Part shown: positions 31,013-45,798 of the stretch, piece after piece
Position numbering within the stretch: the stretch's first letter is position 1
How the letters are laid out: the number at the start of each line of letters is the position of its first letter
Origin: Escherichia phage V18
Strand: one strand, 5' to 3'
Length of the DNA: 64,000 nt
Sequence record: NC_041937.1
Program-made: the position numbers and the translations under genes
Notes under the pieces: model-generated
What the model saw: only the letters and a program-made list of their open reading frames with translations
Told to the model about the DNA's origin: nothing
The model's database searches: none

Positions 31013-31362
31013 CGCACAATTAGCTGCCCGGCTAAAGTGCTGGAAGCACCTATAACACATCTTTCAACTAAATTTCCTACCACCACAATCACTTACCTCC
31101 CGCACATGACTGTTTGCTTGTTTAGTGAGCAGTCATGCCTTGACATTCTTGCCTATCCTGATAAAATTAAGTTCTTCTCTTTTCTTTTACCGAGTAATTC
31201 GGGTTTTCTGTTCTCTTCGGTTTGAAGGGGTATGGAGATACACCTGAGTGAACAGGGTGAACAACCGAACCATTAGCTATGGCATTAGCATGGCGAAGCG
31301 GACGGGTGACGAAAGAGGGGCCGGAGGACACCAGTCACTGCCATATGATATATGGGTGATAA

Positions 31363-31902
31363 CCTGAAGAGTCTGAATAAGTGTTTAAGTACCAGTCAGA
31401 GGAAAAGGTGAATGGTAGCCGAAGGGGGGAGGGGGGTTTCTTGTATCTTTAATTTGTATATTATGTATACACTTGTAAACCAATCTAATCTGAATCTGTT
31501 TACCACACAAAGCGGATAGAGACAAATATTGCCTATTAAACTTGAATTATTTATAGAAAATACCACAACACCCCTTAAGTCTTTGATTTACACACAAATC
31601 CTACAGATATTCAACCTCCATATTTAACATACTTGTAACATATTCCATACTCTACCTGTCTGATCAATTTCCCAACTACATTCTCATATTTTCCCTGTCT
31701 GTACTACCCCTGCCCCGCCGGGAGTCCCGTCATATCTGGCTTTCCAGCAAATATCACACCCACAAATATCATTGCCTGAAGAGGGTTTCATCCCATAATA
31801 CCTGCCTTACCTGAAGAGCGCTTCATACACCACGTAAATTTTTTAATTGACCTCCCCCTGCCCCTCCGGAGAGGTTGGCTTTTCCCACACAGACCTGAAG
31901 AG
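31363..31902. repeat. dispersed CCTGAAGAG repeat family in the inter-arm non-coding region
   Basis: Exact 9-mer at 31363-31371, 31775-31783, 31810-31818, 31894-31902; also CCCTGCCCCGCCGGGAG (about 31708) and CCCTGCCCCTCCGGAGAG (about 31853). Confidence 0.5.
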
Positions 31903-32495
31903 TCAGCCAGAAATATCTGAATAGGCCCGATCTGCCCAGTCAGGAGCCAGTAGCGACTGGAGTGCTGCCAGGCGGACGGAATGGGAATACTTCTCATTCT
32001 TATAACAATTCTCAAATATCGAGGCAGTGAGAGAAATTAATAGGCCAGGCCGTTCACACAGTGGCACAACATTTGCAACCTATCCTGTGGGGATGAATGA
32101 GAATACCTATCATTGTGAGAACTATTATCATTACGGGCAATTTAACATAATACCCATTATGCGCACCACTGGCGATACATACAGGGATTGATACCATGAG
32201 TTACAGTTTACACACATAACAATTATATTTCTTACTATTTGTGTGGGATATAGTTAGCAGCCAATAGATTAGATATTGACCTGTAGACTTCCAACCGTCT
32301 GGACGTCTAAACGCCCACACACCAAGGGTTATACATACATCGCTGAATGTAAACAGGGCCGCAAAAATGCTACCATACCAGTTTGTAAATTTTTCATGCA
32401 GCACTTGACAAAGAGGAGAAAAACTTGTCTGACACAATGTCACACAATATGACACTTTACACTGGACACACTAGGCACAAAAAAAAAAAACTGCA

Positions 32496-32720
32496 GTGAC
32501 TAGGTCACCCCTTCAGGTGTTTCTATGACATAATATAAAAGCAGGGCAACTATTACAAATCTAAAGTTGCCTTGCTTGTTATGTCATGATTAACTAAATA
32601 CAAGGCAACTATGATCTGATTAATAGTTTGCAGACAAACTATCACGGGGGTGATGGTTACTGCTTTTATATTATGTCGCGACTCCGTCGCGCCATGCCAT
32701 TCGTTTGCATAGTTGCCTTA
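32496..32720. repeat. iteron-like locus: nested inverted repeats and GGCAACT repeats (candidate origin/operator)
   Basis: Palindrome GTGACTAGGTCAC 32496-32508; 18-bp perfect inverted repeat GACATAATATAAAAGCAG 32527-32544 vs 32660-32677; CAAGGCAACT(T/A) at 32601-32610 (+) and 32564-32574 (-); AAGGCAACTATG at 32602-32613 (+) and 32708-32719 (-). Confidence 0.55.
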
Positions 32721-33370
32721 TTGTTACAGATAAAATAATTGTATTGTTAATTATTTCTTATCTTTCTATTAGTCATCTAATGATTCCAGTTAGTATAGTA
32801 ACGTATAGTAAACATTAGACGACTAAATATTTCTCTGTTTATGATAACTCACCGTAATAATTTCGGACTGTTTACGAAAAATGTTGACACCCTGGCTGAT
32901 TTATGTTATGCAATTTAAACGAATAATTATTTTATGCAGGTATTGACTATTCCGTTATTCTATGGTTGGAATAAATACTTAGCAGGCTATAGAATGGTGA
33001 GCGTACGTAAATTCTGAGATCTGTCGGCTATAGTTATACCCGATTTTTCACGTAGAACACGCTTTCGATGCTGTGTAAGTGTATGACTTATAAAGATTTT
33101 TAGTTGTTGACAAGATATTGGAGATGTGCATCAGGTTAAAATTTGTGCAATAGCGGCATTACGTGCACTTTTGGGAGAGAAAACGGGTAAAAATGGACTT
33201 GCTACCACACAATGAAAAATTATGCAATAGCTATTTTACATGTATGTTTGTACAGTGCGGGCAATTGATGGCTCGTCAATTATTCCACTTGCCAGGTAGG
33301 GCCGTTTATGGTAGGGGGAAGAGCAGACAAAAAGAAAGGGGCCTAAGCCCTTGATAATTCAGTTAAAAAA

Positions 33371-33790: not shown

Positions 33791-34945
33791 GGTGTTTTTA
33801 CCTCTTAGTTAATTTTCTTACAACTTCCCTTCAAAAAAGAATATAGCAAAACTGCCGATCCCTGTCAACCAAGGATGGCATAATTTTTATGTGATCAAGG
33901 GGCTTTATTGCCCCTGACCATGTAACTTGTTGTATTATTTGTTATTCATCCAGTTTTCCCAAGCTGCCTGATAATCTGCCTCACTGCGGCGGATCTCTTC
34001 TTGCTCTTCAAGCCGGATCTCTTCTTCCAGGTACCCCAAGATATCGGCTTTTTTGGTCTGGCGTAACATCCAATCATCTTTTTTACGGGTAAAGATCTTA
34101 TATGCTTTCTCGCAAACCTCTTTTTTGCTACCTTTTTGGACTTTAAGAACTTTGTAGGCCATGTACTGAACTAGTTTGAGCTGATCAAGACGTTTCATGA
34201 TGTTTACCTCTTTATGAGGTTCTGGTTTGGTGTGGGCCTTTTGGCCCGTGTCATTATCTTATTACTTACGGCGGCAAAATTCAAGTGTTTTTAATTGATA
34301 ATCTTCCTCAGCTTGGAGTACAACCGCTCGATCATTTCGTTGGCATTGGTGAAGCCATACCCTTGAGCGAACTCATCCGCGCCACCTTCGTGATCATGTT
34401 CTGCGTTCATCGCTTCCACAAAATGGAATTCAAGATTATTGAGGTAAGGGCTTGATGTTCCGTCCTCTTTTTCGATGAGATCCCAGATAGCATTAAAACG
34501 TGATTCAACTTCTTGATTAATCCAGCTTGACATAATGTTTTCCTCTCTTCTGGTTGTTGTGTGGGCACTTTTGCCCCTTCAAGATAAATAATATCCCACC
34601 ACCTGGCAGATGTCAACGGTTTTTATAGTTTTTATATAACAGGCACCCCCGGTGATTGTCTCCCCCCGTCGCCAGGTGCCACCCGTGAAACAAGTATAAC
34701 AAAAAACAGGACAAAAACAAGCCCTGTTTTGTAGATATAAGGATTATATTTTTTCGCCTATGTAGTCCGGCCTATTCTTTTCGGTCATACGCTTAAGCAT
34801 TTTTTGCAAAGAGTTAATATATAACACCAGATCGCTGACTACCAGGACAACATTAATCAGCACATACCTAACCATAAAGGGAAAGATCGCCAACATTGCC
34901 GCCACGATCCCCATGGTAATAATTACCTTTCTCATGGTTAGCGGT

Positions 34946-35642: not shown

Positions 35643-36326
35643 GGTGTTTATCCTCTTCCTGTTGCGTTTAATGGGGCGCTTGTCTCCCCTACTTATTATG
35701 TTTTAATCTTCTTGTTCCAGGTGGCGGACCATTCCACCGCCTTATGTATTATGCTTTGTAAGATGGTTGTTTGTTTTCAAACTATTTTAACGATAATCAT
35801 CGTACGCTTTATTAACCTGGCGAATATAACATTCAAAAGCCAGATCAATAGATTTATATTCACGGATATACTCACCATAGGAAACCACATACATTTCTAT
35901 AGCTTCCTCATATGCGAGGAGAGTAGAATCCAAGCCTACGATCTCAGTCTTTGCAATAATAGCCATGATTTTTATCCTCTTTGTGGTTGGTGGGCTTGCC
36001 CCTTTGATTTATATACTACAGTCTTATATGGTCATGTCAACTATTTTCAAAAAATTTTTCTGCCGTGATATTCTTCCCGGTGGGGTTCGCCACCTTCAAA
36101 ATTTTATCATGCACTGGACGCCCAAAAGAATAAGCGCCGTACGCAGTAAGCCAATAATCCCCGTCAGGCTGTACTATTACCGCCGCATATGGTACGCCTT
36201 TTTCGTTTTTGCTGACAAAATAGATCACATTGCCATTAATAGCCTCAGCGCGTTTAATTTGTTCCATCATGATGATTCACCTATCTTTATTTTTAATAGT
36301 TTCAGGCCTTTTTGGCCCCGCCAGGT

Positions 36327-42423: not shown

Positions 42424-43031
42424 GATTTTATCCTCTTAGTGTCTTTTGTGCTTTCAGTGTATTTTGTGTCAGACTATATGTCAATACTTATTTTTTATTA
42501 AACCAGTGGTTGATCTGACCTTTTGTCAGGGCGCAACGGTTAAGCTGTTGCAGGGTATAGCTATGACCGCGACGGAATTTATAAAGGCCTTGCCCGTTGT
42601 TGATGGTTACATCCACCCGGCAAATCACTTGATTGGTGACCACCTGGCGAGTATTGCGACGTACTTTAATTCCGTAGGCGTTCATGATTTTTATCCTCTC
42701 TGTTAATTAGTGTGGTGTTGTTCACCTTGCGAGGATAAGAATAACAGAACTATCCGAGCTGTCAACCATTGGTTAGAATTATTTTTTGGGCAGAATCCCC
42801 GCCCAGGTTAACCATCATTTTTTCGTACTCTTCTTTATGTTCCAATGCTTCCGTTTTAGCCTTTTCGACCAGGGTGATAGCCTCAGCGTCATTAATCGCT
42901 ACATTTCCCAGGTGAGTAGCATTACCTTTCATTTTTGTACCTCCTCTTCAATTGTTTACCCTACAGCATGGGCCTACCAGGTTTGCAAGATTTCACCCTC
43001 TCCCACCTGGTCAGTTAGGTCCTGCCAGGCT

Positions 43032-43320
43032 GGCCCCGCCAGGTTGCAGCGGTTGGCGCATTATGTTAGAAAAAAAATTTTGAAAAGGTGTTGACAGCGG
43101 CCCCGCCAGGTGGCACAATATACCTATCGAAAGGACGGCAGGCACCGGTGACGGGGGAGACAACCACCGGGGATGGGCGCTGCATAAAATGAGAACGGTT
43201 ATCATTATCATTTAAAAATTTATGCAAAAAATCCTTGCTTTCTTTGTCCTGTGTGATACTATAATAACAAGCCGGGGCAACAGGGGCCGGGAGACAATCA
43301 CCGGGCCTGCCCGTTATTCT
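43032..43320. repeat. non-coding repeat block: GGCCCCGCCAGGT copies and GGGAGACAAYCACCGGG units
   Basis: 13-mer at 43032-43044 and 43099-43111 (third copy at 36314-36326); 17-mer GGGAGACAA(C/T)CACCGGG at 43155-43171 and 43289-43305, exact reverse complement at 34648-34664; each 17-mer followed by a GAGAAYGRTTATCATT…AAAA segment. Confidence 0.5.
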
Positions 43321-43380
43321 GCAAACGAGAATGATTATCATTCAAAATTCTAAATGAGAACTCCTCGCATTTAACAAATT

Positions 43381-43900
43381 TAATTAGCATGCTAATTACC
43401 TTCCGTAACAATTTCCTATAAAATAGTACCCCATAAAATATTCCCATATAGAAATTTTAAAAATCCATTTCTGAAAACGAAAAATCGATTTCGTTCCCAA
43501 AAATTTTAGACCTGGTGCTGGACCAATTTCAAGAAAATCCGATTCAGAAAACGAAAAACAGATCGAGTACCGAAAAATTTATCGAGAAAAATTTTCAGAA
43601 AATTCAATCTTTGAAACGAAAAACAGATCGAGTACTTGGAAAGCTGTGCCGCAACTTCAAGATAGTGGTTGGATTATTACCATAAAAGGTCAAGGGTAAG
43701 CGGAGGAAGTTCCCGTAGAAGGGTGTGAGCATGTGCGGGAAATCTGTAATGGTGATCTGGAATATGGTGCAAACGATAGGATGAGTGATTCATCTCGTCG
43801 TGCCTGCTCTGAAAAATCCATTTTAGTTTTCGATCCATTTTCTGATTTTCTAAGGATTTTAAAATATCCGGGCAGGTAAAATATCAAAAGGAGGAAATCC
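43381..43900. repeat. direct-repeat array and palindrome in non-coding DNA
   Basis: Perfect 16-bp palindrome AATTAGCATGCTAATT 43381-43396; GAAAACGAAAAA(C/T)(A/C)GAT(C/T)G units at 43472-43492, 43546-43569, 43612-43634; AAATCCATTTT recurring near 43460, 43802, 43883. Confidence 0.5.
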
Positions 43901-45798
43901 ATTTTAGAAATCCCCCTTACACTTGATATGCCAGGAATTTTCAAGTATCAGCTGTTTTTGTTTTTAGGTTTGTACATGCGCAGAGGTATGGTCGTAACAG
44001 TCCATCTCCCCAGCCCTTCCCAGTTCCAGTTGTAGGCATGGTACCCGGTTATGCATGCACTGCTAGAGTGGTCATAGGCATAAGAGAACGCTATACGCAC
44101 CAAATGGAACCAGTCTTTCCACGGTTGTGGTCCGTAAGCTTTTCTCCAACACCGACACAAACTAAATGTCTCAAGAATAGGCAGGATAACAAATCCATAC
44201 ACCGCCACCAGAATAGCCAGCGCAATGATTGTCAGGAATACATACCCTGCAGTTGAAACGATGATCTCTGTCATTTGTCGTCCCCTTTCTTACGGATATA
44301 GATGTGAGAGCCTGCCTGTATATAAATTTCTCGACCATCTTCTGCAAAGATATGAAATACACGATCACCTTCATACTCGATACGTGATATCTTCATAATG
44401 GTCTTTCCACCTGGGATGCGGATCTCGTCCCCCACAGCGATGTTCCATGCAGATTTAAGCTTAAACATCTGCACCCTCCTTTGGGAGCTCTAACTCTGGC
44501 ATAGCCATATACGCCACAACAGGGTTGTAATCAAAGTAGAAATGACCGTTAATTATCCCAGTTTTGTGAGCATAGTCACCAGATCCTGCAAGAACAACCT
44601 CGCAAACTCCGAAATCCACCTTGCCATTCTCATCTGCCATGGCTACAATATACTTTCCTAGAGGCATGTTTTTAACGCCGTCTACAAATGTCCACCCTTT
44701 GTTCATACTTTATCTCCTGCATTCTCTTAAGGTAACCAGTAAACAATCTCGCCTTTCAGCTTCATGTCGTTTCCAACATAAATTTGCCAGCCATCCATCT
44801 TAGCAGCTGCAGGCCCAAAGTCATCCGCACCCCTTACCTCTTTCCAGGTCCCGTAGTCAGGTTGCCAGATGTAAAATCCACCATCTTTATCCCATGCTCC
44901 GTACACTACGTTTAACAGGTTTCCCATTGCAACAATGGTGGGCCGTGGGAATAATACATCTACAGATGCGCCACAATTTCTGGTATCTTTTAAGTTGCAA
45001 TCCCAAAAGATGTCTGCCAGTGTGGCGGCGATAGCTTTACGTCTTTCCAATGTTACCATATCATACTCACTTTGTTAATAAGTTCTAAAACTTTCTGTCT
45101 TACTTTGTCAAGGTCTGTGGATTCAAAAACTGTACGGTATCCCCAACTTTGCCCATAGGAGTGACTGCAATCCCCGTAGCACCATTGCTCAATTTGATAG
45201 TATTCAAGGAACGGGTGCTGTCTAACTATGATACCATCTCGGTTAAAAATTACCATAATACATCGCTCTCTGTTAGTTTATGCGTATATTATACACTGCA
45301 GTCTTCAGATGTCAACCTCTTACAGATTGCTCCAGTACAATCGGCATTTACATTTTGGGCAATGAGGTTCTTTTATGTAATAACCGTCAGTCTTTGGAAC
45401 ACTTTTTGGTGCAGTTTTAAGATTGTACCTGGTAAAACATCGGAAGCAGGTTACCTCTCCCACCTGTTGATCGTTGATCCACTCACCAGAGTAAAGTTCT
45501 TTCTTGTTTCTCATAATTCTCTCCCAAATCATCTGCAATCTTATACCAAAATCTCCAGCCAGAAAGCACACGGGAACACTTTGAGGATTGAATCTTTACT
45601 TGGCTCGGAAGTTCTTTTCCGTATGGTAGGTAGAAATACCCTCCTGCAGATTCGAATATAGCTCCTTCGGTTGTATCTACCACAGCAAGAATTAAGATTT
45701 TAGTCTCCACAGTGCTCTCCTCTCTTAGTTGTTGTGGAAACTATATCACCTCAGAAGATGGTCGTCAACACTTTTAACCTTTCATGATTGAAAAGTAT

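Follow-up and report, generated by a model that had tools for sequence, protein, structure and literature searches.

A conserved promoter-linked element, Fur-box-like palindromes and direct repeats form a candidate non-coding control module in the early region of Escherichia phage V18

Within a long series of small minus-strand early genes, Escherichia phage V18 (NC_041937.1) carries an island of about 1 kb that lacks a credible gene (positions 42960-43950 of the 64,000-nucleotide stretch analysed here, which is referred to as the window and supplies all coordinates). What does this DNA do for the phage? A preliminary description, made from the letters of the window, had noted its repeats and a plus-strand promoter and had suggested either a non-coding RNA or an iteron-based origin of replication. 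Comparison with other phage genomes now points to a conserved, early, plus-strand non-coding control module, in which small RNA (sRNA) genes would be coupled to operators of the type bound by the host iron regulator Fur and would be followed by protein-binding repeats. To this reading we give roughly an even chance of being right.

The window comes from a Vequintavirus (rV5-like) genome, and the island with its flanks was found to be 87-95% identical to more than 100 Escherichia coli phage genomes of ~137 kb; the island itself was covered by 111 phage records. Conservation was assessed in an alignment of nine Vequintavirus-type sequences. The segment 43085-43375 proved to be much less variable than the flanking genes, with 6-16% variable columns in 43100-43400 as compared with ~30% at the flanking gene ends and 44-82% in the spacers at 42950-43050 and 43600-43800. 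A purine skew typical of sense strands was seen on the plus strand of the island. In the literature searched, no account was found of the island, of the element sequence or of Fur boxes in lytic phages, and the rV5 genome paper (PMC3606486) does not discuss the region. The features of the island, together with a related one at 34.6 kb, are listed in Table 1.

Table 1. Coordinates of the features recognised in the island and of the additional element copy in the window
Feature	Position	Strand	Details
Element copy a	34630-34696	-	Profile 36 bits, E 3e-10; promoter TTGTTT-N16-TATACT at 34720-34693
Variable G+C-rich leader	42960-43090	none	60-82% variable columns, close relatives
Promoter P1	43091-43119	+	TTGACA-N17-CACAAT with TG extension; score 10/12
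Element copy b	43125-43181	+	Core GGGAGACAACCACC; profile 31 bits, E 1e-8
Fur-box-like cluster F1	43188-43213	none	Overlapping 19-mers at 6-bp offsets
Promoter P2	43235-43262	+	TTGCTT, 16-nt spacer, extended -10 TGaTACTAT; read from sequence; inferred start ~43269
Element copy c	43269-43322 (profile match 43256-43325)	+	GAGACAATCACC....CTGCCCGTTATTC; profile 66 bits, E 1.5e-19
Fur-box-like palindrome F2	43324-43342	none	29 bp from F3
Fur-box-like palindrome F3	43353-43371	none	Degenerate
Perfect palindrome, 18 bp	43381-43398	none	TAATTAGCATGCTAATTA; inside the 25% GC stretch
Three direct repeats, 47-nt units	43460-43506, 43534-43580, 43599-43645	none	Spacing 74 and 65
Poorly conserved spacer	43650-43808	none	44-66% variable columns, close relatives
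Conserved distal block	43809-43925	none	ATCCATTTT boxes at 43814, 43832 and 43895

Two copies of the 17-mer GGGAGACAAYCACCGGG (43155 and 43289) and a perfect reverse complement of it (34648-34664) had been reported; all three were recovered, and the motif turned out to be the core of a conserved element of ~55 nt. A profile search of the 64 kb returned exactly three copies of this element, each behind a promoter, and no further match up to E = 10; copy a is oriented like the early genes. Copy c with box F2 has a diverged tandem duplicate in copy b with box cluster F1, the two sharing 72% identity over 57 nt at an offset of 134-136 nt. By sensitive search, only the part at ~43274-43378 is kept in distant genera, at 80-88% identity, these being Seunavirus (PVP-SE1, GAP31), Mydovirus, Certrevirus and Henunavirus, together with a Serratia phage and phAPEC8 (Stephanstirmvirinae). 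In each distant genus the element lies within an unannotated gap of 0.3-1 kb among minus-strand genes. The near-invariant core, GAGACAA(A/T)CACC-N4-5-(C/G)TGC-N2-G-N2-ATTC, always follows ~15-60 nt downstream of a sigma-70 promoter whose spacer sequence varies, and promoter and element are conserved together in Seuna-, Mydo-, Certre-, Henuna- and Phapecoctavirus. In these alignments, both the linkage of the element to a promoter and the layout of the island are clearly conserved.

Two predicted promoters precede the copies in the island. P1 had already been recognised in the preliminary description as a promoter-like sequence, and it held up on inspection: it is almost invariant in eight close relatives (one spacer position varies) and can be grouped in one class with the early promoter on the minus strand at 34616. 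Its spacer contains the third copy of GGCCCCGCCAGGT, a motif found as described at 36314, 43032 and 43099. P2 was not listed by the consensus scanner because only 3/6 positions of its -35 match, but other genera have canonical TTGAYC-N17-TATTAT promoters at the aligned position, and only two positions of P2 vary among close relatives. Three near-identical 30-nt early promoters were also seen on the minus strand (37213, 40942 and 41562; TTGAC(A/T)CCAGGGCCATCAATAAAGTAAA(C/T)T), and CCWGG-containing spacers recur in the early promoters here, P1 included. In Seuna-, Mydo-, Certre- and Phapecoctavirus, two tandem copies of TTTGTAAAGA stand directly upstream of the -35 of the element promoter (loci L004 2425-2450, L005 2415-2440 and L009 2480-2500), an arrangement that does not occur in the window.

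Further members of the family were obtained by pattern scans of viral and metagenome collections. The element is also carried by AT-rich metagenomic phage contigs whose proteins show no detectable similarity to those of the rV5-like loci. Here it is preceded by a TTGACA-N17-TATAAT promoter (12/12) and followed by an intrinsic terminator, as in a small-RNA gene. In distant homologues, the conserved 5' part is joined through an A/U-rich linker to an intrinsic terminator. Searches of 185,579 bacterial species genomes gave 61 matches, among which the one true member was a mis-binned phage contig; across the sequences surveyed, the family is thus phage-specific and broad. No Rfam match was obtained (Rfam 15, gathering threshold for the whole window and an E-value threshold for the island and eight relatives), and scans for tRNA and tmRNA found none. 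On the metagenomic phage contig L098 (4500-4720), a second element copy is followed immediately by another 12/12 promoter and terminator, suggesting a string of small transcription units. Relatives outside Vequintavirus also carry, just upstream of the shared element, a second promoter-driven, conserved RNA-like element of ~95 nt, GCCACCCCACGGCGAAAAGGCGGGGCUAAC...GGAAGGUGGAUCGCCGGUAG (L004 2333-2432, L005 2313-2412, L009 2380-2479 and 17 more loci; absent from the window). For this second element RNAalifold gave 15 pairs, one of which changes from G-C to A-U in 6 of the 16 sequences, and there was no Rfam match.

The preliminary description had missed a set of 19-bp palindromes that begin five nucleotides after the element, with the consensus AATGAGAAT-N-ATTCTCATT. 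In the window these start at 43188, 43324 and 43353, and further at 31980, 32096 and 32114, and are found in the two gene-free regions only. The gap from the element to the first box is fixed, whereas the number of boxes after the element ranges from 1 to 5 among relatives, mostly with a 29-bp period. Matches to the Fur consensus of 16/19, 15/19 and 14/19 were obtained at 43191 and 43327, and footprinted fep/ent operators scored 13-16/19 in the same test; within F1, GATAATGATAACCGTTCTC on the minus strand agrees with the consensus at 16/19. Overlapping consensus matches lie 6 bp apart (island offsets 226/232/238 and 362/368), and Fur sites form overlapping clusters at 3- or 6-bp offsets (PMC2189734). 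The same words as in the phage boxes appear in published Fur-box lists (PMC3055841 and PMC4481299), and the half-sites TGAGAAT and ATTATCA are both present in published Fur boxes.

A weight matrix built from the phage palindromes only was then run over 49 kb of E. coli K-12 DNA (49,001 positions). Its top five hits fell in the Fur-regulated regions fepB-entC, fepA-fes and fepD-entS, which together make up 1.5% of the scanned sequence. The common TTATC variant of the box would produce a G-A mismatch in an RNA hairpin yet is closer to the Fur consensus, which favours a DNA site over an RNA hairpin. The motif persists in phages that infect seven enterobacterial genera with nearly identical Fur, and a search of the window with a Fur sequence gave no homologue. 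In sequence, the palindromes are indistinguishable from host Fur operators. The other gene-free region in which they occur (31100-33350) is larger and lies at a strand switch, with 36% GC at 32-33 kb; it holds GGCAACTAT-type repeats, has no element copy and no 70-bp repeats, and probably corresponds to the box marked 'non-coding' in the rV5 paper.

A C-rich, G-poor stretch of 25% GC (43343-43460, C/G = 3; 43376-43460 when taken as the AT-rich segment next to the repeats) precedes the direct repeats. The palindrome inside it had been given as 16 bp (43381-43396) and is in fact two base pairs longer; in most relatives it is imperfect, one arm being mutated. Three direct repeats at ~70 bp spacing had likewise been reported and are present, although the third reads GAAACGAAAAA and not GAAAACGAAAAA. 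Units 2 and 3 show 79% and 62% identity to the first, and each unit combines a AAATCCATTTC-type box with a GAAAACGAAAAACAGATCGAGTACC box, the cores being conserved while the spacers between units vary. The 18-mer core of the repeats, GAAAAACAGATCGAGTAC, occurs twice as against 0.01 times expected. Three homologous units at 63-78 bp spacing were found in Seunavirus, Certrevirus, Henunavirus and a Serratia phage, and also in Mydovirus BIS47, with a core shared across genera of GAAAA-N-CGATCGAG(A/T)(A/C)CC. In phAPEC8 the element and boxes are retained, but the repeats are of another kind. Structured RNA was rejected as an explanation of the repeats (z-scores +0.4 and +0.6), and the small inverted repeats within the units shift position from one unit to another and look like a by-product of A/T runs.

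These parts could work together in the following way. Host sigma-70 polymerase would start at the strong early-type promoters P1 and P2 and transcribe two element copies, the third copy at 34.6 kb being driven by its own promoter. Fe-Fur bound at the boxes would gate or block the extension of P1 and P2 transcripts into the AT-rich stretch and the repeats, and on replicated phage DNA the boxes would also soak up Fur. The repeats, for their part, may be arrays of protein-binding sites. Transcription, Fur binding, gating and the role of the repeats are what we infer from the arrangement; for gating and Fur titration, the grounds are the position of the boxes, their fixed spacing and their variable copy number. 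A more specific proposal would make the boxes genuine host Fur operators, in arrays directly behind a multi-copy early sRNA of a widespread, phage-specific and undescribed class, with Fur-Fe setting the transcript ends and so forming an iron-dependent gate to the repeats, and with amplified DNA titrating Fur and de-repressing host iron uptake to the advantage of the phage. It is offered tentatively, as conceivable and on balance doubtful.

Several results weigh against a module of this kind. Folding analysis of the element, a check proposed earlier, gave no support for a conserved structure: RNAalifold on 41 element sequences returned no consensus pairs, single-sequence folds of the element had weak to modest z-scores (-0.8 to -3.4), and when the 5' arm was shuffled as a control, the pairing pattern and energy were nearly unchanged. 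A plus-strand intrinsic terminator was not found for the element copies in the window. When the element was compared with E. coli 16S, 23S and 5S rRNA and with three tRNAs, it was no more complementary than shuffled sequences, and no antisense site for it was found within the window. As for the boxes, they lie at ~+55 to +100 from the inferred P1 and P2 starts with no overlap of the -35 or -10, which is atypical of Fur repression, and a period of 29 bp is divisible by neither 3 nor 6. The boxes fold into hairpins as RNA, with a left arm that is able to pair with the UAUUCU tail of the element. A phage protein could also bind the palindromes instead of Fur. With respect to P2, F1 is placed at about -45 to -70.

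Every copy of the element is able to form a G+C-rich hairpin with GAGACAA in the loop; the outer stem shows a few A-U, G-U and G-C exchanges, and its G-U pairs fit the plus strand. Given the missing RNAalifold consensus, the modest z-scores and the shuffle control, no fold is claimed. A double CC to GG switch (CACCGGACCTGCC vs CACCGGGGGTGCC; window 43289-43312 vs L016, L030, L018 and L005) recurs independently in three genera with no compensating change, and this, together with the lack of support for a defined fold, suggests a constraint mainly on primary sequence, like that of a seed or protein-recognition motif. Most likely, the element works as a small RNA or by way of its primary sequence. 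The original suggestion of a non-coding RNA is supported by the comparison, through a conserved, promoter-linked element with terminators in metagenomic phages, with the caveat that a conserved secondary structure could not be demonstrated. Intrinsic terminators are present in the distant homologues L091 and L098, and in the window the C-rich, G-poor stretch could serve as a Rho site. A peptide reading of the element was rejected, as short open reading frames (ORFs) in some homologues have the conserved nucleotides in differing frames and the start codon is missing in most copies. Tandem ~36-nt repeats of the ToxI or pseudo-ToxI kind (phage phiTE) were rejected as well, the ToxI query giving no match within 9 errors in the phiTE-sized locus L024.

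The other early suggestion, an iteron-based origin, was neither confirmed nor disproved, and little apart from the repeats speaks positively for it. According to this explanation, the island would be the lytic replication origin, at which transcription from P1 and P2 opens or primes the AT-rich stretch, the repeats are iterons and the Fur-like boxes are accessory. The promoters do read into the 25% GC segment and then into three conserved direct repeats, the number and layout of the repeats are conserved across genera with varying spacers, and their lack of structure as RNA argues for a role at the DNA level. The T7 and T4 origins also have promoters beside unwinding elements. Published skew analysis did not locate the rV5 origin and is uninformative here; the skew changes only at strand switches, with no inflection at the island (PMC3606486). 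The units of 65-75 bp are long compared with the ~20 bp of classical iterons, no DnaA or IHF boxes were found in the island, and there is no GATC excess (4/kb in the island vs 5.5/kb in the window). Nor does a conserved initiator gene adjoin the island: the window has no plus-strand gene there, and the small plus-strand ORFs upstream in relatives are mutually non-homologous. The repeats of phAPEC8 differ despite its kept element and boxes, and the larger, more AT-rich gene-free region at 31.1-33.35 kb would be an equally good candidate. In view of the promoters, the AT-rich stretch and the repeat layout, an origin is kept as a serious rival, though we consider it unlikely.

It is also improbable, in our judgement, that the palindromes are unrelated to Fur and are instead operators of a phage-encoded dimeric regulator, or sRNA hairpins, that came to look like Fur boxes by convergence of AT-rich palindromes. 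Such an origin of the boxes would account for their placement downstream of the starts at a fixed distance from the element, for a repetition mostly every 29 bp, and for their folding as RNA and pairing with the element tail; in addition, the form seen most often is TGAGAAT, with a central G where the Fur consensus has T. It would leave unexplained that a matrix derived from the phage selects precisely the Fur-regulated regions of E. coli DNA, and that the consensus matches equal those of footprinted operators and show the typical 6-bp overlaps. The TTATC variant breaks RNA pairing while approaching the Fur consensus, and the motif is kept in phages of seven host genera that share a near-identical Fur. 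The adjacent small ORF, moreover, is not conserved between genera.

A role as the packaging (pac) recognition region of a headful-packaging phage is very improbable. Sites bound by small terminases typically contain repeat arrays. Circular permutation is documented for the rV5 genome (PMC3606486), and several GenBank records start or end within the island. Record starts in this phage group are, however, arbitrary and mostly lie elsewhere, that of the reference included; the island is distant from the late and terminase genes, and its promoters and Fur-like boxes would be left unexplained.

The weakest alternative is that the island encodes small proteins. The preliminary description had seen no credible coding potential and had named a homologous gene in relatives as evidence that would speak against its view. 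Such genes are formally on record: rV5 annotates ORF198 and ORF199 here and FFH2 annotates ORF179-181. A 91-aa ORF at 43066-43341 on the minus strand, the sole ORF annotated consistently in relatives, matches PHROG 14993, and an ORF at 43733-43879 on the plus strand forms PHROG 35702. The 91-aa ORF nevertheless fails the coding tests. It is frameshifted in phage Alma and frameshifted or destroyed in the more distant L027, its variable columns are distributed over codon positions 1:2:3 as 9:12:8 with no third-position bias, and it has no Pfam match; PHROG 14993 exists because one and the same conserved stretch is annotated in close relatives. The ORF at 43733-43879 sits in the least conserved part of the island. 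Other records differ from those of rV5 and FFH2, those of Alma and WM having nothing annotated across the island, and no ORF lies over the conserved element in the loci of other genera. The frameshifts, the absence of codon bias and of a Pfam match, and the block-wise variation together identify the island as non-coding DNA with discrete constrained blocks, and a protein-coding function is scarcely credible.

The remaining parts of the island are less conserved or belong to its neighbours. The G+C-rich leader, within which phage WM has a deletion, carries copies of GGYCCYGCCAGG at 43018 and 43032 (repeat family D2) and is probably a non-functional spacer or a promoter relic. In the distal block, the recurring motif AAATCCATTTT noted earlier was confirmed as exact at 43814 and 43895; one-mismatch copies are located at 43461 and, as GATCCATTTT, at 43832. 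A minus-strand hairpin at 43888-43918 with a U-tract at 43877-43887 (terminator fold z -2.6) is likely the intrinsic terminator of the upstream minus-strand operon.

Some irregularities were noted in the database entries for this region (GenBank MG0656xx, PQ002170.1 and PQ014731.1). Seventeen records titled 'Campylobacter phage' share >90% identity with the region of this E. coli phage. Demerecviridae is the family given for a PVP-SE1-like Salmonella phage, whose entry has an 'attL' feature across the repeat region, and a 65-aa ORF adjoining the island is labelled '30S ribosomal protein S2'. The density of GATC in the window as a whole, 5.5/kb, exceeds the ~3.9/kb expected under equal base use.

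If the sites bind Fur, a strictly lytic phage would be reading or manipulating the host iron regulator by DNA sites alone, and phage development would be tied to iron supply, which is relevant to the gut and to phage therapy. In such therapy, rV5-like phages are directed at E. coli O157, Salmonella and Klebsiella. With the element, the few sRNA examples so far from lytic phages would be joined by a phage-specific family that occurs in many genera as well as in environmental phages. The three conserved repeats provide a concrete candidate for the unmapped origin of the group or for another cis-acting site. For annotation, the analysis indicates that the ORFs placed over this region in many deposited genomes are spurious.

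Examples of phage and prophage sRNA genes running from promoter to terminator are DicF, AgvB/AsxR and T4 RNAs C and D. As in these, the element forms short non-coding units behind strong sigma-70 promoters, in several copies, and its distant homologues have a similar succession of conserved 5' part, linker and terminator; the element differs in having no Rfam match and no defined fold, and its copies in the window lack a terminator. Promoter-proximal RNA elements that act on polymerase, such as HK022 put and the lambda nut boxA/boxB, offer a second comparison, since the element too is found immediately downstream of early promoters, several times per genome. Compared by eye, the element tail GCUAUUCUGCAA is loosely similar to boxA, but only weakly so, and its variants GUCAUUC and GUUAUUC are less similar still. 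Because a terminator directly follows the element in distant homologues, a free small RNA fits better than an element of the put/nut type.

With enterobacterial Fur operators (box GATAATGATAATCATTATC; 7-1-7 reading TGATAATnATTATCA), the phage palindromes share 14-16/19 matches and overlaps at 6 bp. They differ in being carried by a strictly lytic phage, in forming arrays of 1-5 with a mostly 29-bp period, and in lying downstream of the starts, right after the element and not over the promoter; they are also known from sequence alone. Promoter- or iteron-type origins include T7 phi1.1A/B with its AT-rich region, T4 oriF/oriG, lambda ori and P1 oriR. The island resembles these in its gene-free position in the early region and in having promoters directed toward an AT-rich stretch and then direct repeats, and departs from them in its three units of 65-75 bp, with no DnaA or IHF boxes, no GATC clustering and no linked initiator. 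The sRNA, the Fur operator and the repeat array are each of a known kind; what appears to be new is that a lytic phage combines them, and also the RNA family as such.

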